NCBI GenBank assembly: GCA_964455705.1
Contig: CAYVYM010000001.1
Coordinates: forward strand, 131,930 to 195,929
Direction: 5' to 3'
Length of the DNA stretch: 64,000 bases
From: an uncultured Rikenella sp.
GTDB lineage: Bacteria; Bacteroidota; Bacteroidia; Bacteroidales; VadinHA17
A program made the position numbers and the translations under genes. The notes under the pieces were generated by a model. That model searched no databases. It was given only the letters and a program-made list of their open reading frames with translations, and was not told the DNA's origin. Shown here one piece after another: positions 16,027 to 39,033 of this stretch (position 1 is the first letter of the stretch; each line of letters opens with the position of its first letter).

Positions 16027-17646
16027 ATGTCAAGAAACCTGAGAGGCCTCTCTGCGCGAAAAGGTGTGGCAGTGGGGCTCTATGAAGAGGTTGTCAGGGC
16101 TACCGGCCAGGTTGATGCTTCGGGTGATGAGAGGCTGCTTACTGTTGCAGGTGATTTCATGACAGGCCATGCCGCTGTTATGGGAGCAAGCTCCTTTTAC
16201 GATTTCCTTCGCAGTGATCATATCGGGAAAAAGGTGTTCGTCTGTGACGGCACTGCCTGTCTCACTTCAGGCAGGCAGGCTGACGTTAAGCGAAGCCTGA
16301 TGGAGAGTTTCGCAGGGCATGAGATCGGGGTTGTGACATGCCTTGGGCACTGTCATACAAACGATGCATTCATGGTCAACGGTGAAGTACGGATCGTGGG
16401 CAGTGACGACACGGCCCCGGCTATGTTGACCTCAACCAATGCTGACAGGCCGGCACTGCTGACACCCACGGGTGATACCAGGGAATACTACTCCCTTGCA
16501 GACAGATGGGTGTCTGACACCGCAACTGCGCTTAAGGAGCTGGAGCTGTCAGGACTGAGGGGACGCGGCGGCGCCGGATTCCCGTATCATCTGAAGGTAA
16601 AATCATCACTTGAGGCGAAGTCCGCAAGGAAATACATTGTTTGTAATGCCGATGAGGGTGATCCAGGTGCTTTCTCTGACAAGTGGCTCCTCGAGGAGCG
16701 GCCTCACTCGGTGCTCTTCGGGATGTTGATGACGGGTATTATCACCGGGGCTGATACCGGCGTGGTTTATATCCGGGGCGAATATCCGCTTGCCGTGAGA
16801 AAAATGAGGGAGGCCGTGAGGGAGCTTGTGGACGCCGGAATCACTGCAGGCCCGGCAGGTCAGGGCGCCCTCCGGTTCCGCTTTCATGTTGTTGAAGGGT
16901 CAGGAGCATATATTTGTGGCGAAGAGACCTCGTTACTCAACTCCCTGGAGGGCCTGCGGCCCGAGGTCAGGACCCGTCCGCCTTTCCCGGCCGTCTATGG
17001 GCTCTTTGGAATGCCCACCGTGCTGAGCAACGTAGAGACCTTCGCCAACATACATTATATACTTAAGGAAGGCGGCTCCGTCTATGCCGCTCTTGGCACG
17101 GAGAAGTCGCCCGGCACAAAACTGGTCTCTCTTGACGGCGCCTTCAACAGGCCGGGACTGCTTGAAGTGAGGATGGGAACAGCGCTCCGAACCGTGCTCG
17201 ACGAAATGGGAGGAGGAACACGATACCCCGTCAAGGCGTTCCAGGTAGGAGGACCCCTGGGTGGCCTGGTGCCTGCCTCAAAGGTCGATGACCTGACACT
17301 CGATTTCGAGTCGTTCAGCAGGGAGGGGTTCCTGCTGGGCCATGCAGGAATAGTATCAATACCTGAGGACTTTCCGATCATTAAACTCCTTGAGCACCTG
17401 TTTGAATTTACAGAGAGAGAGTCATGCGGAAAATGCTTCCCCTGCCGAATCGGATCCGTACGTGGTCATGAACTGCTGTCCGGAGCTGCTGAAAAAGGCC
17501 GGAAGATAGACAGGCAGCTCTTTGATGATCTCCTGGAGACGATGCAAATTGGCTCACTGTGCGCACTTGGCGGTGGCCTGCCATTGCCTGTAATGAATGC
17601 GCTGCACTATTTCAGCGATGAACTTGAAGAGTACTTCACAGCCTAG
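16027..17646 (+). CDS. NAD(P)H-binding flavoprotein subunit of formate dehydrogenase (fused NuoE-like 2Fe-2S + NuoF-like)
   Basis: NuoE-type cysteine pattern VCDGTAC...CLGHCH. NuoF FMN/NAD motif GLRGRGGAGFP. 4Fe-4S motif ESCGKCFPCRIG. Confidence 0.85.
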   Translation: MSRNLRGLSARKGVAVGLYEEVVRATGQVDASGDERLLTVAGDFMTGHAAVMGASSFYDFLRSDHIGKKVFVCDGTACLTSGRQADVKRSLMESFAGHEIGVVTCLGHCHTNDAFMVNGEVRIVGSDDTAPAMLTSTNADRPALLTPTGDTREYYSLADRWVSDTATALKELELSGLRGRGGAGFPYHLKVKSSLEAKSARKYIVCNADEGDPGAFSDKWLLEERPHSVLFGMLMTGIITGADTGVVYIRGEYPLAVRKMREAVRELVDAGITAGPAGQGALRFRFHVVEGSGAYICGEETSLLNSLEGLRPEVRTRPPFPAVYGLFGMPTVLSNVETFANIHYILKEGGSVYAALGTEKSPGTKLVSLDGAFNRPGLLEVRMGTALRTVLDEMGGGTRYPVKAFQVGGPLGGLVPASKVDDLTLDFESFSREGFLLGHAGIVSIPEDFPIIKLLEHLFEFTERESCGKCFPCRIGSVRGHELLSGAAEKGRKIDRQLFDDLLETMQIGSLCALGGGLPLPVMNALHYFSDELEEYFTA

Positions 17647-17650
17647 GAGG
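17645..17650 (+). promoter_or_regulatory. Shine-Dalgarno-like AGGAGG
   Basis: A perfect AGGAGG lies 7 nt upstream of the ATG at 17658. No comparable site was seen before the other genes I inspected in this window. Confidence 0.5.
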
Positions 17651-17657
17651 AGTAACC

Positions 17658-20402
17658 ATGGAAAACACAGCATATATTGACAACCGGCCATACCCTGTCA
17701 TAGCAGGTGAGACAATACTTGAGTTCGTAAGAAGGATACAGGGCCGGGAGGTGATACCCACCCTGTGCCAGGCAGATAACCTCGAGAATTACGGATCATG
17801 CAGGATCTGCTCCGTGGAGGTGGCCCTGAAAGAGAACGGACCGGCCAGGGTGATGGCATCTTGTCATACGCCGGCGGCTCCGGGCTATTATATCTATCCC
17901 TCCACTGAAAAAATCAGGAGACTGAGACGTAATATAATCGAACTGGTTCTTTCAGAATACCCTCCCGGTAGGCTGAAGCCTGATCCCGGCATGCTCCCGA
18001 CGGAGTTTCAGAGTGTTGTGGCTGAAGCCGGCAGTCCTGAGGTAAGATACCAACGGTCGGTCAGTGAATTCGAAAAGGACAGGAGCCATCCTTATATATG
18101 GTCTGACTTCACTGAATGCATCAAGTGCTACCGGTGTGTCAGAGCCTGTGACGAACTGCAGGCCGAGCATGTCCTCGGGATCTACGGAAGGGGTCATGAG
18201 AGTCGCATTATAAAAGGATATGACCGTACTTTCAGGGAATCTCCATGTGTCTCATGCGGCGCATGTGTTCAGACCTGTCCGACCAATGCGATTTCAGACA
18301 GGTACTCAACAAAAACACTTGCGGCAGACAGCATCGTACGGACCACCTGCACCTACTGCGGCGTTGGATGTAACCTGGATGTCAAGGTGATTGACGGCAT
18401 CGTGAGGGGCATACAGGCTCCGCTCGACGGTGCGACAAACAGAGGGCATACATGTCTTAAGGGGAGGTATGCCTTCGAATTCTATAACCACCCTGAAAGG
18501 CTCCATTCACCGCTGGTGAGGAAAAATGGTGTACTCACGGAGGTCTCCTGGGATGAGGCGTATGATTATACCGCAGCCAGATTCAAGGAGATCAGGGAGA
18601 AGTATGGTCCTGATGCACTGGCTGGTATCTCCTCGGCACGCTGCACCAATGAGGAGAACTATCTCATGCAGAAGTTCTTCAGGATTGTCATCGGGACAAA
18701 CAACATTGACGGATGTGCGCGTGTATGCCATGCTCCCACGGCCATGGGCATGCAGTGGGCATACGGTACCGGAGCAGCCACCAATTCAATTGACGAGCTC
18801 TACAAAACAGGTTGCATACTCATAATCGGAGCCAACCCGTCGGCTGCCCACCCGGTGACCGGGGCCCGAATCAGGGCGCTGGCTGAATCAGGGATACCCC
18901 TCATCGTCATTGATCCTCTGAAGATAGAGCTGGCCAGACTGGCAAAATATCATCTTCAGATCAACCCCGGCACCAATGTAGCCGCGCTTAACATGTTTGC
19001 CTGGTATCTCTTAAGCGAAGGACTGACTGACGAGAAGTTCATCAGCTCTCGCACAGAAGGGTGGGAAGATTTCAGGCGATACCTCACGGAACTTGATATT
19101 GATGCCCTTGAAGCGATATGCGGTGTTGACCGCGAACTTGTGAGAGCCGCGGCTCGCGAGTACGGAACGGCACATGCTGCCATGGAGTTTCACGGACTGG
19201 GTGTGACGGAGCACTGGCAGGCTACCAAGGCGATAACCCTTATCTCAAACATTGCCATGATGACCGGCAATATTGGCAGGGAGGGTGTTGGGGTCAACCC
19301 GCTGCGCGGACAGAATAATGTGCAGGGGGCAGCCGACATGGGCGTTCAGCCTCACCAGGGTGCCGGTTACCTTGATGTGACAAAACCTGAAAACCTGGCT
19401 GTGTATAAGGCATTTTACGGAGTTGACCACCCGTCAAAGCCTGGATATAAGATCCCGGAGATGTTCTTTGCCGCAGGCAGGGGCGACCTGAAAGCAATGT
19501 GGATCATGGGAGAAGATTTGCTGCAGACAGATCCCAACACCTGCCATGTGAAGAGCTCGCTTCAGGAACTTGAGTTCCTGGTTGTCCAGGAGCTCTTCAT
19601 GACCGAGACGGCAAAGATAGCCGATGTGATCTTCCCGGCGTCATCTTTTCTTGAGAAGGAGGGAACCTTTACCAATGGCGAGCGCCGGATACAAAAGGTT
19701 CAGAAGGCAGTGGAACCGCTTGAGGGAACCAGGCCCGACGGCCAGATTGTGGTTGATATGATGAACCGCATGGGCTACAGCCAGGAGGGATACTCGGCAG
19801 ATGTGTTACTTAAGGAGATATCTGGCATCGTGCCCTTCTTCAAGGGGGTGAAATGGGATGAGCTCGGCAACAACGGCAAACAATGGCCTGTCAGGGAGGA
19901 TGGCACTGACACAAAGATTCTCCACACAGAAACATTCAAGCGGGGAAAGGGCAAGTTTCATTCATGGGACTATGACATGTCCCCTGAACTAAATGAGAAT
20001 GCCGCTCGTTTCCCCTATATCCTTACCACGGGGAGGCTGCTGGAACATTACAACAGCGGTACCATGACCCGCCGTACACCGAACAGGGAGCTTGTTACGG
20101 AAGATATTTTATTTGTGCATCCTCATGATGCCGGGCAGAAGGGCCTGGTCACGGGAGACTTTGCCCGGATATTCTCGGCGCGAGGTATGACCACCATGAA
20201 GGTACAGGTTACCGATGTCGTCAAGCCCGGGGTGATATACACCACATTCCACTTCCCCGAGGCTGCGATAAACTTCCTCACAAGCAATGTGGGCGATGAG
20301 TTTACCCTCACCCCGGAGTATAAGGTTGTGGCGGTTGATTTTGAGAAATCTTTATATGGGATCTTCCAGCGTGCCGAATGCATTACCGATCTAAAAAGTT
20401 GA
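17658..20402 (+). CDS. fdhA: Formate dehydrogenase alpha subunit (molybdopterin, NuoG-like N-terminus, Cys type)
   Basis: 914 aa. It has an N-terminal 2Fe-2S domain and 4Fe-4S ferredoxin motifs (CIKCYRCVRAC, CVSCGACVQTCP). The MopB domain contains TCTYCGVGC and the active-site stretch GCARVCHAPT, with Cys where Sec occurs in FdhH. There is no in-frame TGA. Confidence 0.9.
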   Translation: MENTAYIDNRPYPVIAGETILEFVRRIQGREVIPTLCQADNLENYGSCRICSVEVALKENGPARVMASCHTPAAPGYYIYPSTEKIRRLRRNIIELVLSEYPPGRLKPDPGMLPTEFQSVVAEAGSPEVRYQRSVSEFEKDRSHPYIWSDFTECIKCYRCVRACDELQAEHVLGIYGRGHESRIIKGYDRTFRESPCVSCGACVQTCPTNAISDRYSTKTLAADSIVRTTCTYCGVGCNLDVKVIDGIVRGIQAPLDGATNRGHTCLKGRYAFEFYNHPERLHSPLVRKNGVLTEVSWDEAYDYTAARFKEIREKYGPDALAGISSARCTNEENYLMQKFFRIVIGTNNIDGCARVCHAPTAMGMQWAYGTGAATNSIDELYKTGCILIIGANPSAAHPVTGARIRALAESGIPLIVIDPLKIELARLAKYHLQINPGTNVAALNMFAWYLLSEGLTDEKFISSRTEGWEDFRRYLTELDIDALEAICGVDRELVRAAAREYGTAHAAMEFHGLGVTEHWQATKAITLISNIAMMTGNIGREGVGVNPLRGQNNVQGAADMGVQPHQGAGYLDVTKPENLAVYKAFYGVDHPSKPGYKIPEMFFAAGRGDLKAMWIMGEDLLQTDPNTCHVKSSLQELEFLVVQELFMTETAKIADVIFPASSFLEKEGTFTNGERRIQKVQKAVEPLEGTRPDGQIVVDMMNRMGYSQEGYSADVLLKEISGIVPFFKGVKWDELGNNGKQWPVREDGTDTKILHTETFKRGKGKFHSWDYDMSPELNENAARFPYILTTGRLLEHYNSGTMTRRTPNRELVTEDILFVHPHDAGQKGLVTGDFARIFSARGMTTMKVQVTDVVKPGVIYTTFHFPEAAINFLTSNVGDEFTLTPEYKVVAVDFEKSLYGIFQRAECITDLKS

Positions 20403-22775: not shown

Positions 22776-22865
22776 TGTAAGGTCATCAGGAAGGTAATTA
22801 TTGGAATGGCGGTACGTTAACATTAATAACAATCATTACTTTTGCATTTAACTAAGGTGATCAGC

Positions 22866-24842
22866 ATGAACAGACCATTAATCCTCATATTTACACTGGT
22901 TTTACTTCTTCCTGTTGCTCTCAGTGCGCAGAAACAAAAGACTGAGCGTGCTTACTCAGCCTACCAGGCCGGAAGCTACTATGATGCCATAGACCTCTTC
23001 AAGGATGTCTACTCGAAGACCCGTGACAAACAGGCGAAGGCTGAGATGGTCTTCATGGTTTCTGAGTGCTACCGTCTGATAAACGACCCGAAGAATGCAG
23101 AGCTCTGGTACAAGAGAGCCGTCAGGTCGGCATTCCCCAGGCCTGAGGCGCAGTACTGGCTGGCTGAGAGCACGAAGAAGCTGGGACGGTACCCCCAGGC
23201 CATAGAGGAGTTCCGCAAGTACCGGCAGCTTGTGCCCGGCGACCCCCGTACCGAGCAGCAGATACGCGCCTGTGAGCTTGCCATCGAATGGCAGGCCTCC
23301 CCGGAATCGTATAACGTCGAGGAGCTGAAGGAGGTCAACTCCAGGAACTCCGACTTCAGCCCTGCATTCGGGCGCGATGATAATGGGCTCCTCTGGTTTA
23401 CCTCATCACGTGATGACGCCCAGGGTAACAAGGAGCACGGTGCCACAGGACAGAGCTTTTCGGATATTTTTGAGACCAGGCTTGACAAGAAGGCCAAGTG
23501 GAGCACCCCTGTGCCGGTTGATTTCCTCAACAGTGAGTTTGAGGATGGTACTCCATCATTCTCTTCAGACTTCACAGAGGTATATTTCACCCGTTGCGAG
23601 GCTGGCAAGCGCGAGAGCAAGGGGTGTGTGATAATGTATTCCACCCGTGAGGGCACACGCTGGTCGAACCCGGTGAAGCTGGAGCTGCTTGCCGACTCGC
23701 TTGTTGCTGCCCACCCCTCAGTCTCTCCTGACGGCCAGACGCTCTATTTTGTCTCCGACATGCCGGGCGGACTGGGCGGAAAAGACCTATACCGTTCCAC
23801 CCGCACCTCGCCCGGCAGCCCGTGGTCGAGGCCCGAGAACCTGGGAACCGACATTAATACCAGGGGCAATGAGCTCTTCCCATTCATCCGCGAGGACGGA
23901 ACACTCTATTTCGCTTCTGACGGTCACATCGGAATGGGCGGTCTGGATATCTTCAGGGCGACGCCCCAGGCTGGCGACAGCTGGATTGTCAATAACATGA
24001 GGCCGCCGATAAACAGCCCGGCAGATGACTTTGGCATCACCTTCGAGAAAGGCGCCGAGAAGGGCATCTTCAGCTCGTCACGCAAGGGACGCGGAGTTGA
24101 TGACCTCTATACCTTCGAGATGCCTCCGCTGCTCTTCAGCATCACCGGACTCGTGAAGGATGAAAAGAGCGGGCTGCCCGTTCAGGGCGCAACGGTACAG
24201 CTCATCGCCAGCGATGGCGCCAACATGCAGACAGAGACAGGCAATGCAGGCGATTTCAAATTCAGCCTCAGACCGGAGGTTGACTATATCTTCCTGGCCT
24301 CAATGAGGGGCTTCCTGAACGGCAAGGAGAAAGAGACAACAAGGGGACAGGACAAGAGCCGTGAGTTTATGGCTACAATCCTTCTGACACCTATTGACAG
24401 GCCTATTGAGCTGCCGAACATATTCTACGACTTCGGGAAGTGGGACCTGCGTCCCGAATCCATGGTCTCACTTGATAAGCTGGTAGAGACCCTGAATGAC
24501 AATCCGAACGTTACAATTGAGCTGATGTCGCACACTGACTCGCGTGATACCGAGGAGTACAACATGGATCTTTCACAGAAAAGGGCGCAGTCGGTTGTGA
24601 ATTACCTCATCGGTAAGGGAATCGCTTCTGACAGGCTCACTGCCAGGGGTTATGGTGAGGGCAGCCCGAAAGTGGTGGATGCAGTCATCATTGAGGACGC
24701 TCCGTTCCTTCGTTCCGAAGCCACACTTAACGAACAGTACATCAACTCACTCGCCAGCGAGGAACAGAAGGAGATAGCACACCAGATCAACCGACGCACT
24801 GAATTCAGGGTGTTGAGGACCGACTATGTTCCTGCAAACTAA
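22866..24842 (+). CDS. OmpA-family protein with TPR, TolB-like beta-propeller repeats and C-terminal OmpA domain
   Basis: Signal peptide MNRPLILIFTLVLLLPVALSAQ. TPR-like N-terminus. Repeated ..LYF.SD..GG.GG.D.. propeller-type motifs. C-terminus is OmpA-like (MSHTDSRDTEEYNMDLSQKRAQSVVNYL...NRRTEF). I prefer ATG 22866 over TTG 22842. Confidence 0.8.
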   Translation: MNRPLILIFTLVLLLPVALSAQKQKTERAYSAYQAGSYYDAIDLFKDVYSKTRDKQAKAEMVFMVSECYRLINDPKNAELWYKRAVRSAFPRPEAQYWLAESTKKLGRYPQAIEEFRKYRQLVPGDPRTEQQIRACELAIEWQASPESYNVEELKEVNSRNSDFSPAFGRDDNGLLWFTSSRDDAQGNKEHGATGQSFSDIFETRLDKKAKWSTPVPVDFLNSEFEDGTPSFSSDFTEVYFTRCEAGKRESKGCVIMYSTREGTRWSNPVKLELLADSLVAAHPSVSPDGQTLYFVSDMPGGLGGKDLYRSTRTSPGSPWSRPENLGTDINTRGNELFPFIREDGTLYFASDGHIGMGGLDIFRATPQAGDSWIVNNMRPPINSPADDFGITFEKGAEKGIFSSSRKGRGVDDLYTFEMPPLLFSITGLVKDEKSGLPVQGATVQLIASDGANMQTETGNAGDFKFSLRPEVDYIFLASMRGFLNGKEKETTRGQDKSREFMATILLTPIDRPIELPNIFYDFGKWDLRPESMVSLDKLVETLNDNPNVTIELMSHTDSRDTEEYNMDLSQKRAQSVVNYLIGKGIASDRLTARGYGEGSPKVVDAVIIEDAPFLRSEATLNEQYINSLASEEQKEIAHQINRRTEFRVLRTDYVPAN

Positions 24843-30137: not shown

Positions 30138-31109
30138 TCAATTCCCGATCAGCGGCAACAGTCTGCTGATGTCTTCCATACTAAATGCCTCCTTAAACCT
30201 CAAAAGATCGTGACTAGTACTGTTCTTTTCCAGGTACTCTTCCTTCAAATTCCGCAGATACTCCTTATTCTGAATTGCATTAAAGTTTATTATCTGGATT
30301 GTGGACCTTGGCAGTTCCCTGTTCCAGTATTCGGGGTTGACTTTTACTATACGCGGGAATAGGCTGTCCTGGCCGCCATACCCATGCTGGTAGGTAACCC
30401 GTGAGACACCTCCGCCGAAGTATGCCTGTTTATCACGAAATTCCTCAGGAATCTCATTCCAATCCTTCTCAATGAAATCAATCAGGTACTGGGAGGCATC
30501 TTCGTTTTTTGATTCTTCCCTCACCGCTGCGAAGGCCTCACTCACTGTGACTGGAATCCAATAGGGGGGCCTTGACGGATCATAAATAACGAACCACTCA
30601 CCGTCGTAAACATCGATTCCAGGCTCGACAGTCCTTTTTCTTAAAGGGGCTGTAAAATACCCGTGTTTGGCGTTATGGTTGTACGTCGCCTCCCAGCCGG
30701 GTTTAGCCTGGTTGATGTATAATGACCACTCCGGGGGCTCAATGGCATTCATGACTATTGTTCCGTCTTTCCTTCTGAACCATGAGCTGAACTCAAAGCT
30801 GATCCTTGATGGTATCCCATATCCTGCAACCTCTTTGCAGTTGAGATTATAGATCCTTGCCCTGCCTTCGAATCCCCTGATGTCACTCAGGACGGGATTC
30901 TGGCGGATCACACTGACCACATCAGTAATTCTCTCCAGGTTTGTGGTGATCTCACTCTTTGTGAAGCCACAGTCATACCCTACATAGTTTGTGCGGCTAA
31001 GGATTGTGAAAGTGCCGGGTTTATCGCGTACCAATGACGATTCCTGGGCAATCAGCCCGGGGAGTAGTCCTGTTGCAAAAACAAGGCATATGGCAATTTT
31101 CTTTTTCAT
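30138..31109 (-). CDS. Secreted hypothetical protein, paralog 1 (operon gene 7)
   Basis: 323 aa. Signal peptide MKKKIAICLVFATGLLPGLIAQ. About two-thirds identical by eye to the upstream neighbour (shared blocks GEWFVIYDPSRPPYWIPVTVSEAF, AYFGGGVSRVTY, FPRIVKVNP.YWNRELPRS.IQIINF). I recognise no family. Confidence 0.8.
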   Translation of the reverse strand: MKKKIAICLVFATGLLPGLIAQESSLVRDKPGTFTILSRTNYVGYDCGFTKSEITTNLERITDVVSVIRQNPVLSDIRGFEGRARIYNLNCKEVAGYGIPSRISFEFSSWFRRKDGTIVMNAIEPPEWSLYINQAKPGWEATYNHNAKHGYFTAPLRKRTVEPGIDVYDGEWFVIYDPSRPPYWIPVTVSEAFAAVREESKNEDASQYLIDFIEKDWNEIPEEFRDKQAYFGGGVSRVTYQHGYGGQDSLFPRIVKVNPEYWNRELPRSTIQIINFNAIQNKEYLRNLKEEYLEKNSTSHDLLRFKEAFSMEDISRLLPLIGN

Positions 31110-31202: not shown

Positions 31203-32183
31203 CTATTTCCCGATCAGTGGTACCAGCCTCTTGATTTCTTCCAGATCAAATGTCTCCTCAAAGCGATACAGATCATGAGCTATACTGTTCTTCTCCCGGG
31301 CTTCCTCCCTCGATCGCCTGAGATATTCCTTATTCTGGACTGCGGTGAAATTAATGATCTGGATTGCAGAACGGGGCAGCTCCCTGTTCCAGTAATCCGG
31401 ATTCACCTTTACTATACGCGGGAAGATGCTATCCTGATTGTCAGACCCGGGCCTGTAAGTAACCCGTGAGACACCCCCGCCGAAGTATGCAGGCTTGTCG
31501 CGAAAATCTTCCGGAATTTCATTCCACTCCTTTTCAACTAAATCATTCAGCATCTTGACGGCTGTTTCGTTTTTTTCTTCATTTATATTTTCCCTTGCCG
31601 CAACGAAAGCCTCACTCACCGTGACGGGGATCCAGTAGGGGGGTCTGGACGGATCATAAATAACAAACCACTCACCGCCATAGACATCGATGCCGGGTTC
31701 AGGAGTCTTCTTGTCCAGTGGTGCGGTGAAATACCCGCGTTTGGCGGCATGACTGTATGTCGCCTGAAATCTTGGCTCAACTTTGTTGATAAGAAGAGAG
31801 AATTCGGGCACTTCATATGGATGCATTGTCACTGTTCCATCTCTCTTTCGGTACCACGAGCTGAATTCAAAGCTGACCCTTGATGGTATTCCGTATCTCC
31901 CGGGCTCTTTACAGCCGGGGTTGTAGATTATTGCCCTGCCTTCGAATCCCACAGGATTCGCGAGGACAGGATTTTGCCTGACAATGTTGATGAGGTCCGT
32001 TAGTATCTGAGCGTTAGCGGCTACCTCTGCTTTTGTGTATCCGCAGTTGGAGTTAACATAATCAGGATGACTCCGGATAGTGAAAGTGCCGGGTTTGTCG
32101 GTTACCAGAGGCAACTCCTGGGCAATCAGCCCTGTGACCAGTCCGGTTGCAAGGACAAGGCATATGGCAATCTTCATTTTCAT
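31203..32183 (-). CDS. Secreted hypothetical protein, paralog 2 (operon gene 6)
   Basis: 326 aa. Signal peptide MKMKIAICLVLATGLVTGLIAQ. It is a paralog of 30138..31109. Confidence 0.8.
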   Translation of the reverse strand: MKMKIAICLVLATGLVTGLIAQELPLVTDKPGTFTIRSHPDYVNSNCGYTKAEVAANAQILTDLINIVRQNPVLANPVGFEGRAIIYNPGCKEPGRYGIPSRVSFEFSSWYRKRDGTVTMHPYEVPEFSLLINKVEPRFQATYSHAAKRGYFTAPLDKKTPEPGIDVYGGEWFVIYDPSRPPYWIPVTVSEAFVAARENINEEKNETAVKMLNDLVEKEWNEIPEDFRDKPAYFGGGVSRVTYRPGSDNQDSIFPRIVKVNPDYWNRELPRSAIQIINFTAVQNKEYLRRSREEAREKNSIAHDLYRFEETFDLEEIKRLVPLIGK

Positions 32184-32195
32184 TACATTGAAGTT

Positions 32196-34565
32196 TTAAT
32201 ATTTTGTACTGACAGAATCAACTGTGACAGTAATAGCCGACTTGAGAACATCCATCCCGGCAGAGACTGACTCAGGGCATTTTTCAAACTGGTTCAGGAA
32301 ATCCTTCCCGGCTTTGTCGTAGTCTTTTGTACGTTCAATTAACGAATCAAGCTGAGGTTTTACCTCTGTGACCCTCCTCTGGAATGTGGCAGGATCTTCA
32401 ACAGCAGCAGCCTGGATTGTATCTGTCAGTGCTGACAGCTCATTCAGGGCGATTGAATAATCATTTACTGCAATACTATTGAACTTTTCAACGCAGTCAC
32501 CGATATACTTGATTCCTGCCTGCAGAGTAGATATCCCCTCAATGTCAGGGGTAATGCCCTGAGTCTTATCGCATCCGCACTCTCCCGGTGAATATGGCAG
32601 ACCCACCTGCAGTGGCTCGCTTGTCGGCGGTGGCGGTGAGATTGGGGGTTCTTCATCTCCCGGCTCCGGTTTTGGTTGCTCCGTTGGGGGCTCCTGTACC
32701 GGAGGGGTGTCGGTCTTAGGTTTGGGGTCAACAGGAGGTTTCGGTTCAGGTGGCTCAGGAGTGGGGTCTGTCTTTGGTTCTTCCGTTTTCTGAGGTTCGG
32801 TTTTATCGCCCTTGCAGATCTGTTGAAGTTGTTCTATTCTCTTAAGGTTCTTTAGAGCTTGATCCCAGTTTTCATGCGCACCCTTCAGAGCCTCCTCATG
32901 GGACCATATCTTCCCGATGTTATCTCCGAATCTGGTCCCGGCCTGGGCAACACCGTAGATCCCGGTCAGTGTGCTCATGGCTCCTCCTGCAAGCAGACCC
33001 GCTGCACCTATAATGGCATCCTGTGACTGTGCCGACCCGTTGAAACTACCAATCATTTCTGAGATTACCGCTCCTGCATTAGCGATCTCTGAGGCGGCTT
33101 TAATTGCTCCCGAAGTCTTTCCGCCTGATATGATTGTAAGTCCTGCCTTAGCAAGCAGGTCCACAGCTGATGCGGTAAGGTCATCTACTGCTTTTTCAAA
33201 TTCTTTTGAGCCGGTAACCTTCTTTATTTTCTCCGCTGCTTCCTGCAGGTTTTCAATTGCGGCCTGCTTCATCCTCTCAAGCGCTTCCACAGTCTCCTTA
33301 TCACAGTTAACAACTTCCACTTCAACGGTCGGACCTGTAGCATGGCCACAGTTTGTTTTTGCCTGAAGGGTGGTATTTCCTGCACGTGAACCTGTTAATT
33401 CAACTGCTCCTGGTAGTCCAACAGCCGACAGAACGGATTTATCAGCGGCGACGAAATCGACCAGTTCTTCCAGATTCGATGGTTGGGCCGTAACAGGAAT
33501 TTTAAGTACACCTGAAAGTCTCTTTCCATCTATATCGAAGAGTGCAATCTGCGGAATCTCCTGCCCGCCATTGTAATTTTCGATATTCACATAGGAAGCA
33601 GGTTGAGATGCTGTATTCGTTTTCCCTGTAGGGGTGGTGTACTCCACATACACCGTACCTTTTCCCGGTGTTGCACCTGTCAGTATAGCAGAAGATTCAC
33701 CGTCGGCTTCAACATTGAGTAAAGTGCCTGGCTCGACCCAGAACCGAAACTTTCCGCCTTCAGGTTTTCCGGATGCCATAACCTCGGTTTGTTCTCCTGT
33801 GCCGAGTTCAGAACAACCGTATAGAGACACCTCCGGTTTGTCTGGTTCCTTATAGGGGCTGATTGTAATATCCAGAGTGGTTTCTCTGTTGATAAATGCT
33901 GTGCCATCAACTGAATGTCTTTGTTTTTGTTCATTGAATTTCCATGTTGCCTGGTAACCCGAAGCAGTTTTAATAATTTTGCATTTATTGTCGGAGCCCA
34001 CATCGCAGCCACCTGCACATGAAATATAATACTCATCAATATCACCTCCATAATCTTTCCATTCACCGTTAAACATGCGTCCCTTATCCGACCCTGTTGC
34101 AATGATTCCGGTATTGATGCTGACTGATTTGCTATCGTCGGCATAATAGAATTGTACAGCAGCATTAGGCGCCGAAGAGCCGGAAACATTAATATCCCTG
34201 TTATCAGCATGTATCATCGTACCATCAATGGTTTCAAGGAAAGTTGAAGATTCAGAGTGTGATCCCTGTCCTGTAATAGAAAGGGTTACCTGATCACCAG
34301 CGTCTGAATCGAATGTGAAATCCTTGTCCGGGCTTTCAGCCTGATTTTCGATGATAGCCGTAATAACGCAACTCGACACGGTTCTTACTGTAGCGTGTTT
34401 TTCTTTATCCCATTTTTTATTCCCGGCCATAAAACTTATAAGCGTATCCCTCTGCATAGAGTAGCTAACAGATATTTTAGCTGTAAGCAACCACAATCCC
34501 GTATCCTGAGCAAGAGAAGTAATGCTCATTATCAGCAGAGCGAAAAGAACGGTAGACTTTTTCAT
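32196..34565 (-). CDS. Large secreted protein: beta-rich N-terminus, two Ig-like (Big_2-like) segments, Gly/Ala-rich hydrophobic helical segment, Pro-rich linker, helical C-terminus (operon gene 5)
   Basis: 789 aa. Signal peptide MKKSTVLFALLIMSITSLAQ. Ig-like stretches (e.g. VELTGSRAGNTTLQAKTN...TVEVEVV). Residues ~474-547 read GLTIISGGKTSGAIKAASEIANAGAVISEMIG...AIIGAAGLLAGGAMSTLTGIYGVAQAG. Residues ~588-651 form a PEPK-type proline-rich spacer. Confidence 0.8.
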   Translation of the reverse strand: MKKSTVLFALLIMSITSLAQDTGLWLLTAKISVSYSMQRDTLISFMAGNKKWDKEKHATVRTVSSCVITAIIENQAESPDKDFTFDSDAGDQVTLSITGQGSHSESSTFLETIDGTMIHADNRDINVSGSSAPNAAVQFYYADDSKSVSINTGIIATGSDKGRMFNGEWKDYGGDIDEYYISCAGGCDVGSDNKCKIIKTASGYQATWKFNEQKQRHSVDGTAFINRETTLDITISPYKEPDKPEVSLYGCSELGTGEQTEVMASGKPEGGKFRFWVEPGTLLNVEADGESSAILTGATPGKGTVYVEYTTPTGKTNTASQPASYVNIENYNGGQEIPQIALFDIDGKRLSGVLKIPVTAQPSNLEELVDFVAADKSVLSAVGLPGAVELTGSRAGNTTLQAKTNCGHATGPTVEVEVVNCDKETVEALERMKQAAIENLQEAAEKIKKVTGSKEFEKAVDDLTASAVDLLAKAGLTIISGGKTSGAIKAASEIANAGAVISEMIGSFNGSAQSQDAIIGAAGLLAGGAMSTLTGIYGVAQAGTRFGDNIGKIWSHEEALKGAHENWDQALKNLKRIEQLQQICKGDKTEPQKTEEPKTDPTPEPPEPKPPVDPKPKTDTPPVQEPPTEQPKPEPGDEEPPISPPPPTSEPLQVGLPYSPGECGCDKTQGITPDIEGISTLQAGIKYIGDCVEKFNSIAVNDYSIALNELSALTDTIQAAAVEDPATFQRRVTEVKPQLDSLIERTKDYDKAGKDFLNQFEKCPESVSAGMDVLKSAITVTVDSVSTKY

Positions 34566-34584: not shown

Positions 34585-35739
34585 TCAATTGCGTACCAGA
34601 CTGAAGTCAATTTTTACCGTTGTCTTCTCCGTCCCCTGTGATACATCTTTTTCTTCATTCTGACTCAACACCTTATCCTCAGGGGTACCCTGGTATGGCC
34701 CGAAGACTGCAGTAAACGGCACATCTATGCTCTTGGTTATTGTATCAGGTGGTTCGTTCTCATTATTACCGGTACACGGCCCGTCAACTTTCTTCTCCGT
34801 GGTAATCTTCATCGTTCCCTTTTCGGAAGTGGCCTTTACAGTCAGGAGGTAAGTGCCATCATCAAGAAAAGTAATCCTGATTCTGGCATCAGATACCTGT
34901 GCCCCGTCAGAAACGCTTTCCCTTGAAAGACCCTGGACCTTTGCCTCTGATTCTTTCGTTTGGGTAATTTTTGCATGACCTTTAATACCATCCTTACAGA
35001 CATAGCAGGAGTGGCTGATGATTGTCCTGTAATTCTCCTTGAGATCATATGTGACAGTACCGGAAGCACCTGCCAGGGATTCCTTTACCAGCTCCCATCT
35101 GAGGGTCGAATTGCTCTTAATCTCCACATCCGTGGCAATCAGGCCGGCGTCGCACGGGATAGAACTGGATGACGATTCATCCTTCTCGCTTTTAACTTCG
35201 ATGTTTACGGTGCCTGTATAAGGGCAGATCTCATATTTCTTCAGCTGATCCATCAGCCTTTTTACTGGCTTTATGGTTGATTCCCCTGTGACTTCTGCGG
35301 GTGAGAACGGCTCACTGAAATCTGCGATTATCTCTCCCTCTTTGTTTGTGCAGACTACTGTAGCCTGGGCCATATCCTCGGAATTGACGAACATGCTGTA
35401 TTTTACGGCTAAGTCAGGGTTGGCCAGGGATTGGGCGATTTTACTGACAACAGGTTTTATATCGCGGCCTCCGAATTCCGGGGTTGACTGCAGGCGCAAT
35501 TCATTCATGCTTGACTGTATCGCCTTAGGATCGGTCACCCCCACACAGGGGTAATTCCTTTCCATTTCACTAACCATGTCGGTGATGAATATATCATTAA
35601 GACCTCTTGACAGGTAAAGGAGATTACTGTCCGCCGAACCAGCTTTTGGCACCAACAGCATCCTCAGATCCTGGCAGGAAACCTGCTGAACAGGCAGCAA
35701 CATCAGTGCGAAAAGGAAAACCGGGATTGAACACTTCAT
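34585..35739 (-). CDS. Secreted Cys-containing hypothetical protein (operon gene 4)
   Basis: 384 aa. Signal peptide MKCSIPVFLFALMLLPVQQVSCQ. The start overlaps the upstream stop (ATGA). I recognise no family. Confidence 0.75.
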   Translation of the reverse strand: MKCSIPVFLFALMLLPVQQVSCQDLRMLLVPKAGSADSNLLYLSRGLNDIFITDMVSEMERNYPCVGVTDPKAIQSSMNELRLQSTPEFGGRDIKPVVSKIAQSLANPDLAVKYSMFVNSEDMAQATVVCTNKEGEIIADFSEPFSPAEVTGESTIKPVKRLMDQLKKYEICPYTGTVNIEVKSEKDESSSSSIPCDAGLIATDVEIKSNSTLRWELVKESLAGASGTVTYDLKENYRTIISHSCYVCKDGIKGHAKITQTKESEAKVQGLSRESVSDGAQVSDARIRITFLDDGTYLLTVKATSEKGTMKITTEKKVDGPCTGNNENEPPDTITKSIDVPFTAVFGPYQGTPEDKVLSQNEEKDVSQGTEKTTVKIDFSLVRN

Positions 35740-36740
35740 CTGGTAATGACTTTACAGGCAGGATACATGTTTTCAAGCTGGGCTATTTCAGATTCCGGCA
35801 CCTCGGTATTTATCAACCCAAGTTCCTCCAGGTTTTTGAGTTTATTCAGTACCGGAAAGGTCGACATTAACGGATTATTGTCGGCATATAGTTTCTTCAG
35901 TCCTGGCAGCTCTTCAATCACCCCGGGCAGTGAAGTCAGGCTGTTATTGAAGATGCCGAGGGTCTTAAGATTTCTGAACAGCGATATCTCCTGTGGGAGT
36001 GTGGTGACAAATACCCCAAGGTTTACGATATATAGTTCATCAAGTGGATAGTCAGCGGCGTTCTTCACTATTGTTGTCAGGTCAACCGGCACCGGGCTCT
36101 GAGTGTTTGTTATAACCAGGGTCCTTATGGATTTGTACAGAGGCATGATGTCGATGATAGCCTGTATTCCCCTCATTGATACATCTATCACCAGCACCTC
36201 CAGCTCCCCGGCGACCCAGGGAATAGGCTCTATTGCATCATCCTGCCGGTATTCCTCAACGATCTCCTCTCGCAACGGTTCTGCTAATAATATGTCCGCT
36301 CCCTTACCACCGCCAGCAGCCTTTATTATCTGACCAAAAATGTCAATCTTCTGCTGTGCCATGTCCTGGCTTATCTCCGCCATCTTCTCAGCGTCATCAG
36401 AGGAGTCCTGTCCCGATTGGTTCCCTGATCCGGAACCTGTTCCGGCTCCGGACCCGGCAGGCGCACCGGATCTGCCCTGCATGTTTGTGCCGGACAACAA
36501 CTGTTTTGCCAGATCACGGATCTGCTCGTTGGCCTTTTTTGCAGCCGCAGGGTCATCCCAGTTGGTTGTACGCCTGATCTCAGCCATCCGTTGCCTGATC
36601 TGGTCGGGTGACTGTGTGCTCTGTGCAGTGACAAGAGCTGACACGCATATCATCATCACCATAAGCCAACGCTTCACCTGACCAGGGTTTGACAGAATGT
36701 TCAACCTCCGCCTTCCCACCGTGGGAGAGTCGCTATTCAT
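35736..36740 (-). CDS. Leucine-rich-repeat protein with N-terminal helical and Gly/Ser-rich regions (operon gene 3)
   Basis: C-terminal LRRs (LPQEISLFRNLKTLGIFNNSLTSLPGVIEELPGLKKLYADNNPL...LKNLEELGLINTEV). The hydrophobic signal-like segment is WLMVMMICVSALVTAQ. The start is ambiguous. ATG 36740 overlaps the upstream stop by 8 nt (ATGAATAG). The alternatives are GTG 36677 and ATG 36662. The ORF-track start at 36845 is unlikely. Confidence 0.7.
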   Translation of the reverse strand: MNSDSPTVGRRRLNILSNPGQVKRWLMVMMICVSALVTAQSTQSPDQIRQRMAEIRRTTNWDDPAAAKKANEQIRDLAKQLLSGTNMQGRSGAPAGSGAGTGSGSGNQSGQDSSDDAEKMAEISQDMAQQKIDIFGQIIKAAGGGKGADILLAEPLREEIVEEYRQDDAIEPIPWVAGELEVLVIDVSMRGIQAIIDIMPLYKSIRTLVITNTQSPVPVDLTTIVKNAADYPLDELYIVNLGVFVTTLPQEISLFRNLKTLGIFNNSLTSLPGVIEELPGLKKLYADNNPLMSTFPVLNKLKNLEELGLINTEVPESEIAQLENMYPACKVITR

Positions 36741-37725
36741 CCTCAGCGAAGTAGAGCTTATATTGATAGGCGGCCTCCAATTTTTCAAGGTATCCGTCAA
36801 TAGCCCCCAGGGCCGGAATCTCCCTCCCCTCAGCAGGCATTTCAATGCCTGACTGTGCTTTGATTGCTTCGGCCGAAATGTTGCCCAGGTTCTGATAGTC
36901 CGGTATGGAAGACTTTATGATTTCCAGGTGTTTGCGGAGTGCGGCACGGTACTTTGGAGTATACTTGTTGCAGTATGCTATTTTTTCATTCTTAATCAAA
37001 AGTGCCAGCGAATCCATCTGCTTCCCCTGACCGTAGTCGATTCCTGTCATTGACATCCTCTTATTATGCCAGGCATCCATCCTGTCAAGCATTTTCTGCC
37101 GCTCAGGATCAGATTCGAGAGGCGTGTAAAGCGCTGCAATCTTATTGGTTATTTCAGATATCTTACTGTTTGCTGCCTGCTGTGATATAACTGACTGATA
37201 CATGCTTTGCGCGTTCCTGTTCCTCGCTTCCTGGTTCGGATCAGCCTGATGGGTTGCTATTGCTTCCGTTGCGTAGGCTTCAGCATAGGCTTTTTTCCCT
37301 GCCTCGCTCATTTTTCCAATACTTTGCGCGTCATCCATCGTCATATTGGTCTGCTGTGACATCATCTTGTTTGCCAGAGCCTGCTTTTCGGCAGCAGACA
37401 TGTTCTTCGAGTTCTTCATCTTCTCGAGGTCTGCCTGGGAGATACCGTACATCTCCGACATCTGCTTCATGGCATTGTCACGAGCATTGCCTTCATTGGC
37501 TTTCATATGCGTGTCAACCCTCTTATTGATTGCATGGAGCTCTTCCTTTAGCTGCTTCTGCAGTCCTGCAACCGCAGATTTAAAGTCTTCCGCCGCCACC
37601 CTTGTGATGTTGCATGAATCCTTCGGCAGCACCGGGAGTTTCTTCAGATAATCGGCCGTTCTGGTCTGTGCCAATGACAATGATCCTATGCCCAGTGTGA
37701 TGAGCATGAGAAAAACCTGCCTCAT
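36733..37725 (-). CDS. Secreted alpha-helical Met/Gln/Ala-rich hypothetical protein (operon gene 2)
   Basis: 330 aa. Signal peptide MRQVFLMLITLGIGSLSLAQ. Its start lies 3 nt after the upstream stop (TAAaccATG). I recognise no family. Confidence 0.75.
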   Translation of the reverse strand: MRQVFLMLITLGIGSLSLAQTRTADYLKKLPVLPKDSCNITRVAAEDFKSAVAGLQKQLKEELHAINKRVDTHMKANEGNARDNAMKQMSEMYGISQADLEKMKNSKNMSAAEKQALANKMMSQQTNMTMDDAQSIGKMSEAGKKAYAEAYATEAIATHQADPNQEARNRNAQSMYQSVISQQAANSKISEITNKIAALYTPLESDPERQKMLDRMDAWHNKRMSMTGIDYGQGKQMDSLALLIKNEKIAYCNKYTPKYRAALRKHLEIIKSSIPDYQNLGNISAEAIKAQSGIEMPAEGREIPALGAIDGYLEKLEAAYQYKLYFAEDE

Positions 37726-37728
37726 GGT

Positions 37729-39033
37729 TTAGAGTTTTATGAACTCAACCCTGCGGTTCAGTGCCTTGTTGGCGGGGGTGTCATTGGGTGCAACGGGTTG
37801 GCCTTCGCCCATACCGTCGGTCACAAGACGGTCGCCGTTCACTCCGAACGACTTCACCAGCTCGTTCTTCACTGATGCGGCCCTGCGTTTTGAAAGATCA
37901 AGGTTGGCAGCATCGGCGCCGTCGGCATCGGTATGGCCTACAATTTTGACCTTGACATCGGGGACTTCATTGAGGATACCTGCTATCTCCTTGAGCGTCC
38001 CGTATGACTCCGGTTTTACAACATCCTTGTTTACATCGAAATAAATCCCGTAGGTAATAAGCTTGCCTTCGGTCATCAGCTTATTGCGCATGTCAGGTGC
38101 ACCCACGGCAATGCGTACATTGCTGATCATGGCGGCACCGTACTCAAACCTCAGCCTGTCTGGCTTAACGCAACCTGCCGGAAATGCCCTTGGAAGATCA
38201 ATGATCTTGTTCTGATCCTGGTAAACGCGTACCCTGGTTTTCTGAACCCATATTGCAATATGGTATTTCTGGTTCATCTTCTCCTTCAGGTTGTCTCCGT
38301 CGATATAACCGGTCAGCTTGGCAGGAACGCATGCCTCACCGTAGAACCAGGTACCGTAACTGGGCCTGCCGAAATATTCAACCTGGAAATGGAATCCACC
38401 CTGGCCGGGTGCCGATCCATGGTCAAAAGCATTTACGTTTCTCGCCTGCATCAGTCTCATATGCCATCCTGACATACCCGGACCCTCCAGTCCGCCTATG
38501 GGAATAATATCATATTCAATTGTATAATTCTCAGGCAGCTTAAGCAACCCGTCAGTCCAGACGCTCTCATCCATCACAAATCTCATCCAGTTGCCCGGGT
38601 AGAGATTAGTGGTTACCACCTCAGCTGAGCCGTTGGTGTTCCACAATGCCGGGAAGTCGCCCACGGCATCCTGGCTGAAATCGTCATAAAAGATTACCTT
38701 CTCACCCGGGATAAAGTCATATTTGGAATAGCTCTCCAGTGAGGTCCCTGACTGGCTTCCGGCCTTCTGGTCGCTCTTGCCCTGAGCCTGTCCGTCTGCG
38801 GTGTTCTGGCCACCTGCTGCCTGTCCTGATCCGTCATCAGCTTTGAGTCCGGCTGCGATACTGTCCTCTGCAGTATCAAGCACCTTGTTGATAGCCTGGT
38901 CAGTCTTCTGGTTGAGCCGCCTGTTTACATTCTGCTCAAGTTTTTTCTTAAGATCAACCTTGATCTGTGCTTCTGCATTAATGGTCATGCTAAATAAAAT
39001 CAGCACAGCCATAATCCTGGTTAGGGTCTTCAT
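37729..39033 (-). CDS. OmpA-family protein with central beta-sandwich domain (operon gene 1)
   Basis: 434 aa. Signal peptide MKTLTRIMAVLILFSMTINAEAQ. A low-complexity Gly/Gln/Ala segment is followed by the SYSKYDFIPGEKVIFYDDF block. The C-terminal OmpA-like domain reads VKIVGHTDADGADAANLDLSKRRAASVKNEL...NRRVEFIK. Confidence 0.85.
   Translation of the reverse strand: MKTLTRIMAVLILFSMTINAEAQIKVDLKKKLEQNVNRRLNQKTDQAINKVLDTAEDSIAAGLKADDGSGQAAGGQNTADGQAQGKSDQKAGSQSGTSLESYSKYDFIPGEKVIFYDDFSQDAVGDFPALWNTNGSAEVVTTNLYPGNWMRFVMDESVWTDGLLKLPENYTIEYDIIPIGGLEGPGMSGWHMRLMQARNVNAFDHGSAPGQGGFHFQVEYFGRPSYGTWFYGEACVPAKLTGYIDGDNLKEKMNQKYHIAIWVQKTRVRVYQDQNKIIDLPRAFPAGCVKPDRLRFEYGAAMISNVRIAVGAPDMRNKLMTEGKLITYGIYFDVNKDVVKPESYGTLKEIAGILNEVPDVKVKIVGHTDADGADAANLDLSKRRAASVKNELVKSFGVNGDRLVTDGMGEGQPVAPNDTPANKALNRRVEFIKL

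Follow-up and report, generated by a model that had tools for sequence, protein, structure and literature searches.

A modular exported protein family encoded in a hypervariable envelope island of uncultured Bacteroidales

Introduction

Several described envelope systems resemble parts of the locus analyzed here. OmpA consists of an N-terminal barrel, a Pro-rich hinge and a periplasmic domain, TonB and TolA combine an N-terminal membrane anchor with a Pro-rich spacer and a small C-terminal domain, and the Myxococcus pair TraA/TraB consists of a polymorphic, Cys-containing exported recognition protein and a partner with an OmpA domain. At the level of whole loci, replacement flexible genomic islands are generally cell-envelope related (PMC6060240). 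Here, we analyzed a stretch of 64,000 nucleotides from an uncultured Rikenella sp. of the Bacteroidales (contig CAYVYM010000001.1, positions 131,930–195,929; hereafter the window), and in it a minus-strand gene, here called T, that encodes an exported protein of 789 residues. The kind of locus, an envelope replacement island, is known; its cargo and the T family are undescribed, and we found no description of the gene cluster in the literature. We tentatively read T as an envelope protein with an exchangeable N-terminal end, and we show that a Gly/Ala-rich stretch reminiscent of pore-forming proteins is a peculiarity of this allele.

Results

T encodes an exported multidomain protein

A preliminary description of the window had listed T as a secreted protein, and this holds: the open reading frame (ORF) begins with ATG, and its product starts with MKKSTVLFALLIMSITSLA↓QD, a signal peptide with cleavage at the arrow. 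Because more than 175 full-length relatives of 740–850 residues were found among 5.8 billion proteins, and because the ratio of nonsynonymous to synonymous substitution rates (dN/dS) was 0.19–0.22 in a codon comparison with three close relatives, T is a genuine gene. Apart from one JGI entry with the automatic label TonB, the relatives lack a functional annotation, and none has a precomputed Pfam domain. An AlphaFold2 run of the full protein, based on a 39-sequence alignment, gave a mean predicted local distance difference test score (pLDDT) of 80. The parts of T are as follows:

32196–34565 (−): T, 789-residue exported protein (ORF, ATG start, more than 175 homologs, dN/dS about 0.2, AlphaFold2 pLDDT 80)
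34506–34565 (−): Sec signal peptide, residues 1–20, type I cleavage SLA↓QD (sequence)
33855–34496 (−): N-terminal domain, residues 24–237, eight antiparallel strands of 16–27 residues, swappable (AlphaFold2 pLDDT 94, predicted template modeling score (pTM) 0.84)
33309–33833 (−): two immunoglobulin (Ig)-like domains, residues 245–419, the best-conserved part of T (AlphaFold2, Foldseek, 53–91% identity)
33303–33335 (−): junction GPxVEVEVVNC, residues 411–421, nearly invariant, boundary of two modules (invariant columns, module uncoupling)
32811–33299 (−): helical domain, residues 423–585, with helices 423–451, 454–478, 491–506 and 512–585 (DSSP of the AlphaFold2 model)
32886–33125 (−): hypervariable segment, residues 481–560, which includes the Gly/Ala stretch; core hot spot at residues 511–540 (amino acid and nucleotide identity, dS)
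32616–32807 (−): Pro-rich disordered spacer, residues 587–650 (pLDDT below 50, homolog lengths)
32199–32612 (−): C-terminal domain, residues 652–789, with a QVGLPYxPxxCGC motif, a three-helix bundle and four invariant Cys (alignment, AlphaFold2)

In the full-length model, the beta domain of very long strands (pLDDT above 90) is followed by Ig-like sandwiches at residues 245–331 and 353–419, by the four helices, of which the last (512–585) is 74 residues long, by the disordered region and by three helices within residues 675–788. The Ig-like domains and the Cys-containing helical domain behind the spacer, both already proposed from the sequence, were thus recovered. Foldseek matched the full model to Ig tandems (SraP, SbsB, EA1, SGBP-B, Ldt, NCAM and invasin; E 1e-6 to 1e-3), and together with the modeled strands these matches identify residues 245–419 as a tandem of beta-sandwiches of the bacterial Ig-like (Big) kind, with none of the Pfam Big models reaching its cut-off. 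The Ig tandems swamped this search, and the helical part yielded nothing informative.

Eight Cys residues are invariant in the homolog alignment (C251, C406, C421, C584, C663, C665, C691 and C763), which fits an oxidizing, exported location. The family has no conserved lipobox, and a lipoprotein was ruled out, as a Cys near the cleavage site is found in only 6 of 85 homologs and is unconserved. About 30 extra residues, rich in Ser, Thr, Pro, Glu, Lys and Asn, separate the signal peptide from the first strand of the N-terminal domain in 25 of the 85 type-1 homologs (P0018, P0021, P0026, P0043 and others), and a few type-1 homologs carry an unconserved Cys at the cleavage site itself.

The two peptides singled out earlier, one Gly/Ala-rich and one Pro-rich, lie exactly at residues 474–547 (nucleotides 32925–33146) and 588–651 (nucleotides 32613–32804). 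The Pro-rich peptide marks a real, family-wide spacer that measures 66–97 residues in 109 homologs (median 71; 64 in T) with 30% Pro, and it is the length and composition of this spacer that are conserved, not its sequence.

The T family is confined to Bacteroidales-type genomes among the matches

Searches of T against Pfam, NCBIfam, PADLOC, PHROG and PDB sequences gave no match, a T profile hit only low-complexity poly-Q/Pro artefacts among the PDB sequences, and distant family members likewise have no Pfam domain. A profile of the C-terminal domain matched 60 of 1.84 billion representative proteins. Most of these are T-like proteins of 700–900 residues, or fragments, that end with the domain, and a few are odd matches in several stretches. 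This search contained no fusions of the domain to other architectures, and a word-indexed homolog search with the domain alone found 4 fragments only. Judged by these profiles, the domain is exclusive to the T family.

T-bearing loci were found at 58 sites in GTDB genomes and on several metagenome contigs, all of them in metagenome-assembled genomes (MAGs) of Bacteroidales-type lineages and none in isolates among the matches of a scan by two peptide patterns, which may have overlooked divergent members or members in isolates. The MAG labels include Prolixibacteraceae, Draconibacterium, Maribellus, Sunxiuqinia, Mariniphaga and "Rikenellaceae". A phage or plasmid origin was ruled out, as tblastn matched no relatives of T on phages or plasmids.

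Evidence for two uncoupled modules

Pairwise-distance correlations with Mantel permutation were calculated for 47 T copies, which come from non-independent and partly fragmentary MAG loci. They link the N-terminal domain to the two Ig-like domains (rho 0.59, p 0.0005), and the helical parts helA and helB to each other (rho 0.82) and to the C-terminal domain (rho 0.73 for helA and 0.72 for helB; p 0.0005), and the N-terminal and C-terminal domains are not significantly correlated (rho 0.09). By these distances, T evolves as two uncoupled modules, one consisting of the beta domain and the Ig-like domains and the other of the helical and C-terminal domains, with a boundary that coincides with the nearly invariant GPxVEVEVVNC junction. 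The N-terminal domain occurs in at least four unrelated types (clusters of 91, 18, 8 and 3 sequences) that pair with two major helix classes in several combinations, and some loci contain a second tandem T gene with a different N-terminal domain.

Tandem duplications of T were seen in loci L011, L012, L016, L031, L033 and L042, and in several duplicated loci the match of the second copy begins near residue 245, with a differing N-terminal domain. In L004 and L036, a 459-residue protein with an alternative N-terminal domain and Ig domains is followed by a separate gene for the rest of T. This could reflect a genuinely split gene or a frameshift in the assembly.

A hypervariable segment within the helical domain

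Domain-wise identities show that residues 481–560 are the most variable part of T. The homolog P0002, which is 78% identical, shares 83% of its amino acids with T in the N-terminal domain, 91% in the Ig domains and 88% in helix A, and only 40% in this segment. The sliding nucleotide identity against P0002 and P0003 is 82–93% (P0002) or mostly 79–96% (P0003, with one 68% window at 121–150) up to residue 480, decreases to 64–66% at residues 481–510, dips sharply to 37–39% at 511–540, and is again 68–69% at 541–570. Across the stalk end and linker, it is 80–84% for P0002 and 74–82% for P0003, and in the C-terminal domain 66–73% and 66–79%, respectively. The rate of synonymous substitution (dS) is about 1.4–1.7 at the hypervariable segment versus 0.34–0.5 in the N-terminal domain, the Ig domains, helA and, in the case of P0002, the linker. 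Against P0002, the conserved parts have a dS of 0.34–0.50, helB and the C-terminal domain reach about 1.7 (saturated), and the stalk is saturated beyond Jukes–Cantor correction (pS 0.80), with dN/dS below 1 in every part of the gene. The high-dS segments therefore differ in ancestry and are older. Recombination has made the T gene a mosaic of long-lived alleles, on which purifying selection acts, and the hot spot is neither locally relaxed nor driven by point mutation. The Gly/Ala stretch is this allele's version of the most variable 30–90 codons of T.

A diversity-generating retroelement or silent-cassette mechanism was ruled out for the hot spot, which contains indels and has about 38% nucleotide identity: there is no reverse transcriptase among the ORFs of the window, nor is there a silent or second copy of any part of T. 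Ordinary homologous exchange between genomes may be the mechanism that renews the hot spot.

The hydrophobic character of the Gly/Ala stretch is allele-specific

A glycine-zipper-like spacing and a membrane-inserting hairpin like that of pore-forming bacteriocins had been proposed for the Gly/Ala stretch. In this genome, T has an uncharged run of 28 residues (517–544), with a Kyte–Doolittle 19-residue maximum of 1.57 (518–536) just below the usual threshold of 1.6, an Eisenberg <H> of 0.62 and a low hydrophobic moment. In the 109 full-length homologs, the median of the longest uncharged run in the helical domain is 9 residues, and that of the Kyte–Doolittle maximum is 1.17, with values of at least 1.6 in 5 cases. 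The 28-residue run is confined to T of the window and the 92%-identical P0001; P0110 has a run of 25 residues, and other homologs have K, E or D at the aligned positions. The hydrophobic character of the stretch is thus a property of the allele.

Neither the motif nor the architecture of a membrane-inserting element was found. The pattern [GAS]xxx[GAS] occurs 18 times in T versus 18.3±2.2 times in shuffles, GxxxG occurs 4 versus 2.7±1.3 times, which is the chance level, and the glycine-zipper register (G/A/S)xxxGxxxG is neither above the composition expectation nor conserved in the alignment. In the AlphaFold2 model, the stretch spans the end of helix 2, a loop, the 16-residue helix and the first third of the single 74-residue helix, in the region of the recombination hot spot, and there are four helices in 165 residues rather than a hairpin of two hydrophobic helices within a 10-helix bundle. 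The Pfam Colicin and Gly-zipper families gave no match to T at E≤1, and the comparison with colicin pore domains that had been suggested came out negative, with no colicin-type structure in the Foldseek top 50 of the full model. A cognate membrane immunity gene does not lie beside T, as the neighbors encode signal-peptide proteins without transmembrane segments. The membrane reading of the stretch was abandoned because of its non-conservation, the lack of a motif, the wrong architecture and the lack of a family match.

The N-terminal domain is modeled with long beta-hairpins and has weak matches to outer-membrane proteins

Modeled alone (pLDDT 94, pTM 0.84), the N-terminal domain forms a hairpin meander of eight strands with 16–27 residues each. 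Outer-membrane barrels with protruding strands make up nearly all of its Foldseek neighbors in the PDB, among them pOmpT (7xw0; E 4e-5, probability 1.0), OpcA, Pla, OmpT, Ail and FadL, and further a Legionella Dot/Icm porin, autotransporter barrels and secretins; a viral structure library gave similarly weak matches to outer-membrane proteins. The TM-scores to outer-membrane proteins are only 0.14–0.35 with root-mean-square deviations of 13–29 Å, and the eight-stranded Ail scores 0.19.

In a one-dimensional, face-by-face analysis, five strands have a hydrophobic face of about four alternate residues near the side of the termini, with polar tips and with the aromatic residues W25, Y204 and W208 on hydrophobic faces. 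Strands 96–113, 136–146 and 190–200 have no charge-free hydrophobic face of membrane-spanning length, so that the belt of a membrane barrel is plausible on five strands and absent on three. K199 is invariant, and E105 is usually charged in homologs. The segments LWLL and AVIEN are hydrophobic on both faces, which together with the invariant W25 and A29 resembles a protein core. The last strand ends with ITISPYKE and lacks a terminal aromatic beta-signal, the tips of hairpins 2–4 are conserved and charged and not hypervariable, and 49 of 140 full-length homologs have an unrelated, non-type-0 N-terminal domain that is not barrel-like, with the rest of the protein kept.

The operon around T

T is the fifth gene of the tightly packed minus-strand operon OmpA434-hel330-LRR-b384-T-p32-p32, the other members of which are:

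37729–39033 (−): OmpA434, with signal peptide, middle domain and OmpA_C peptidoglycan-binding domain; first gene and constant partner (Pfam OmpA 4.7e-22)
36733–37725 (−): hel330, exported, helix-rich by composition, no family assignment (composition, family searches)
35736–36662 (−): exported LRR protein, probable start M62 of the listed 369-residue ORF (Pfam LRR_4, homolog N-termini)
34585–35739 (−): b384, exported, beta-rich by composition, no family assignment (composition, family searches)
31203–32183 and 30138–31109 (−): p326 and p323, paralogs in tandem, from the most frequent family of the loci

All seven products have type I signal peptides, and none has a conserved lipobox or the C-terminal domain of the type IX secretion system (T9SS). 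When T and its six neighbors were compared with Pfam, NCBIfam, PADLOC and PHROGs, only OmpA_C and LRR matched. An OmpA434-like partner accompanies 30 of the 47 T copies compared, and many of the other contigs are truncated. The middle domain of OmpA434 stays unassigned, as Pfam gave no support for a DUF1080- or lectin-like domain, and the NCBIfam TraB match of this protein is limited to profile positions 389–496, the OmpA domain. The p32 family is the largest in the loci, with 82 members in 62 loci, 1–5 copies per locus and at least three subfamilies at conserved positions, and it has no match in Pfam, NCBIfam or PHROG.

The listed TTG start of the LRR ORF (35736–36845, −) overlaps the end of hel330 by 113 nucleotides. 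Because LRR homologs begin with MRYVLMVLML, the real start is probably M62 (nucleotide 36662), which would give an exported protein of 308 residues. Its N-terminal half is homologous to family f16 of other loci. A sigma-70 promoter scan, which is ill-suited to Bacteroidetes, stayed at chance level (13 versus 13.1).

The C-terminal domain of T co-varies with OmpA434 and not with p32

The C-terminal domain of T co-varies with OmpA434 (rho 0.41 and 0.38; Mantel p 0.004 and 0.002), and its correlation with flanking housekeeping genes is −0.12 to 0.09. As the N-terminal module in between is uncoupled and the flanks are close to zero, this argues for co-adaptation over mere linkage, and we consider a co-adaptation of the two partners to be moderately supported by these distances. 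The proteins hel330, LRR and b384 co-vary as a block (rho 0.59–0.77), and also with the non-OmpA part of OmpA434 (rho 0.35–0.50), not with T. For p32, no co-variation with any T domain was seen (rho ≤0.25; ≤0.19 for helA, helB and the C-terminal domain, the last at 0.04–0.19). This argues against a toxin–immunity relationship, and p32 as an immunity-like cognate of T was ruled out by the Mantel tests.

T resides in a replacement island

The cluster, in versions with alternative middle cassettes, recurs in MAGs of several families, and many of the longer contigs show it between DUF2851 and MFS/pyrF (DUF2851 in 16 and MFS in 20 ORF-family members). Type I loci are arranged as in the window, optionally with Fn3 and MORN_2 proteins; in type II loci, a 700-residue TPR protein, the N-terminal half of which is homologous to the LRR protein (hhalign probability 100), takes the place of the LRR protein and b384; type III loci have an Fn3+MORN protein and a 1040-residue TPR protein; and minimal loci consist of OmpA-T or OmpA-p32-T. 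Extras are a papain-like C1 peptidase and a DUF3108-like protein. Alternative cassettes lie at 6760–8916 in L013, 5872–9989 in L017, 3755–4825 in L005 and 3028–3711 in L020. The 700-residue TPR protein ends with DVIGIGF, an OMP-like C-terminal Phe, and the 1040-residue TPR protein, which is accompanied by the Fn3+MORN_2 protein, has a Gly/Ser-rich beta C-terminus.

Median pairwise identity is 79–90% for the flanking genes, 85% for the OmpA_C domain and 65% for the rest of OmpA434. Within T, it is 55% for the Ig domains, 47% for helA, 46% for the C-terminal domain and 35% for helB, and the neighbors have 39% (hel330), 41% (LRR), 30% (b384) and 30–37% (p32). The ORFs of the window include no integrase, transposase or other mobile-element gene. 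Differing cassettes occupy the same site without such genes, and because this pattern fits the published definition (PMC6060240), we assign the locus to the replacement flexible genomic islands.

A 666-residue protein with TPR, PD40 beta-propeller, CarboxypepD_reg and OmpA_C domains is encoded at 22842–24842 (+), a combination known from the T9SS component PorE/PG1058 (PMC5053529). In many MAGs, this PorE-like protein (family f7) flanks the island as a conserved neighbor. At 16027–20402 (+), a Nuo51-like FMN/4Fe-4S subunit is followed by a 914-residue molybdopterin oxidoreductase with 2Fe-2S and 4Fe-4S domains, a pair that by its domains appears to be of the NAD-linked formate-dehydrogenase type. 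The other genes of the window are those of an ordinary Bacteroidales chromosome (GH116, GH67, GH92, LacI, GS type III, prfA, pyrF, PNPase, PriA).

Discussion

Our data suggest, with a probability of roughly 0.4, that T is an exported, disulfide-stapled envelope protein that docks via its C-terminal module on OmpA434 and carries an exchangeable N-terminal module as well as a spacer whose length is conserved. T is exported by Sec, stapled by disulfides and would be elongated in the cell envelope; its helical domain and Cys-stapled three-helix domain would dock on the peptidoglycan-bound OmpA434 layer; the Pro-rich segment of about 70 residues would serve as an extended tether; and the beta domain with the two Ig domains would be a contact or binding end that lineages exchange freely and that faces the outer membrane or the exterior. 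Helices 423–478 (56 residues) probably run antiparallel to helix 512–585, with C421 and C584 together at the base, so that residues around 470–530, and with them the Gly/Ala stretch, would form the far end of a helical hairpin. There, the stretch is probably an allele-specific protein contact patch and not a membrane-insertion element. The idea of a periplasm-spanning strut, also raised in the preliminary description, is compatible with the conserved spacer length, the OmpA434 partner at 30 of 47 T copies and the co-variation of the C-terminal domain; the spanning itself is what we infer from these features.

Several points weigh against this reading. Every family search was negative and gave no homology-based functional anchor. 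The docking on OmpA434 rests on co-occurrence and on moderate correlations from non-independent pairs, and simple linkage might explain why helB and the C-terminal domain co-vary. The inter-domain geometry of the AlphaFold2 model is unreliable (pTM 0.41), and the place of the Gly/Ala stretch at the tip rather than in the core would follow from the helix lengths and the invariant C421 and C584. Purely periplasmic proteins rarely diversify so strongly, which hints at surface exposure or contact with incoming agents.

The N-terminal domain might instead be an integral outer-membrane barrel from which hairpins protrude, with the rest of T reaching OmpA434 through the periplasm in an OmpA-like topology distributed over two genes, which would make T a strut from the outer membrane to the wall, with an exposed part targeted by phages or competitors. 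This would account for the outer-membrane barrels among nearly all Foldseek neighbors, including those of the viral library, for the hydrophobic strand faces of about four residues with W25, Y204, W208 and polar tips, and for an order of elements that matches the OmpA layout. However, the TM-scores are only 0.14–0.35 (Ail 0.19) at deviations of 13–29 Å, three strands lack a charge-free face of membrane length, with K199 invariant and E105 usually charged, LWLL and AVIEN with W25 and A29 look like a core, the beta-signal is missing, the hairpin tips are conserved, and about a third of the full-length homologs (49 of 140) manage with a domain that is not barrel-like, so that we regard the barrel as unlikely. 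An even bolder view is that OmpA434, T and the exchangeable LRR, TPR, MORN and Ig proteins form a new polymorphic, wall-anchored recognition apparatus of Bacteroidales, in which N-terminal beta domain types, helix-tip alleles and C-terminal domain alleles would be modules reshuffled by recombination, either for kin/non-kin discrimination or for the interception of phage or type VI secretion system (T6SS) proteins, and in which the N-terminal domain would be a new long-hairpin beta fold with local structure related to outer-membrane barrels or secretin-like sheets; taken as a whole, this is speculative and rather unlikely. The diversification could also reflect conflict within a periplasmic surveillance or defense system, whose peptidoglycan-anchored LRR, TPR, MORN, Ig and T modules would bind phage or T6SS proteins. 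All components are exported, none with a known outer-membrane export signal, protein-binding repeats are numerous, a papain-like protease is optional, and the diversification at a fixed locus is extreme; but PADLOC matched nothing beyond the OmpA domain, no effector, ATPase or nuclease is encoded, and the idea is purely inferential, which makes it improbable.

Two further explanations assign a toxic function to T. The VEVVNC junction could demarcate an exchangeable C-terminal effector of a polymorphic toxin or bacteriocin-like protein, with p32 as immunity or orphan immunity protein, and a module boundary at an invariant motif, the tandem duplication of T in some loci, the 1–5 copies of p32 and the MORN_2, LRR and TPR proteins of related loci speak for such a system. 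Yet Pfam and NCBIfam revealed no toxin domain, purifying selection acts on the C-terminal module, which is a plain helical bundle, the correlations of p32 with helA, helB and the C-terminal domain (rho ≤0.19) are too weak to be meaningful, the p32 subfamilies keep to conserved positions, and neither a dedicated secretion or lysis gene, nor a T9SS C-terminal domain, nor relatives on phages or plasmids were found, so that this explanation is very improbable. Least of all do we expect T to be a membrane-damaging effector whose Gly/Ala helices (residues 474–547) insert into the membrane. Residues 517–544 are uncharged in this allele, with Kyte–Doolittle and Eisenberg values of 1.57 and 0.62 and a low moment, and the locus shows the polymorphism common in toxin loci; but 107 of 109 homologs lack the uncharged run and have K, E or D at the aligned positions, and this non-conservation largely refutes the pore-former. 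In addition, the motif is not enriched, the stretch extends into one 74-residue helix of only four, Pfam (Colicin, Gly-zipper) and PDB sequences gave no match, a membrane immunity gene is absent, and p32 does not co-vary with any T domain.

If our preferred reading of T as a docked envelope protein with an exchangeable end is true, the island would be the protein-based equivalent of those glycan-type replacement islands by which phage–host and strain–strain interactions are shaped, here in abundant uncultured Bacteroidales of sediment, soil and digester, and T would represent a new exported family with a modular recombination grammar, consisting of the GPxVEVEVVNC boundary and a hot spot of 30 codons. 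The case also calls for caution in annotation, as the hydrophobic low-complexity run of one allele suggested a pore-former, and comparison with homologs removed this reading.

How does T relate to the known systems? Like TonB and TolA, it combines a long helix and a small domain at the C-terminus with an EP/KP-type Pro-rich spacer (about 70 residues), and it is genetically associated with an OmpA/Pal-type peptidoglycan binder. Unlike them, it has only a cleavable signal peptide and no N-terminal membrane anchor, ExbBD/TolQR genes are absent from its operon, there is no TonB_C match in Pfam or NCBIfam, the C-terminal domain is all-helical with disulfides, and a large N-terminal beta-plus-Ig module is present; the Pro-rich spacer is thus the one TonB-family trait that was found, and the membrane anchor with ExbB/ExbD and TonB_C were not. 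With OmpA, T would share the order of elements if its N-terminal domain were a barrel, the structural neighbors are outer-membrane barrels, and a peptidoglycan-binding function exists within the operon, whereas this function belongs to another protein, the TM-scores are low, the hydrophobic belt has gaps, and the N-terminal domain can be replaced by unrelated domains. The likeness to Myxococcus TraA/TraB lies in a polymorphic, Cys-containing exported protein beside an OmpA-domain partner and in the swapping of variable domains that defines alleles, but there is no sequence relationship beyond the OmpA domain, T lacks PA14 and MYXO-CTERM, belongs to another phylum and is known from sequence alone. 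Colicins and glycine-zipper toxins resemble T in that it is helical and, in this allele, has one long uncharged Gly/Ala-rich run, and differ by the 10-helix bundle, the conserved hydrophobic hairpin (about 40 uncharged residues), the motif enrichment, the family match and the immunity gene that T lacks. The inverse autotransporters intimin and invasin also have an N-terminal beta domain followed by tandem Ig-like domains, and invasin is among the Foldseek matches; however, this match is through the Ig fold only, T has neither a 12-stranded IAT_beta barrel nor LysM, and its C-terminal part is helical. As in polymorphic toxin systems (CdiA/Rhs-like), T has a boundary at a conserved motif, but it has no toxin domain and no co-varying immunity gene. 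Judged by these comparisons, T does not appear to be a member of the TonB/TolA, OmpA, TraA/TraB or colicin families. With the replacement flexible genomic islands of Rodriguez-Valera and colleagues (PMC6060240), finally, the T island shares differing cassettes for analogous envelope components at the same position, the lack of mobile-element genes and evident homologous recombination, and it differs in what it carries, as the classic cargo consists of glycans (O-antigen), pili and flagellar glycosylation, whereas the cargo of the T island consists of exported proteins.

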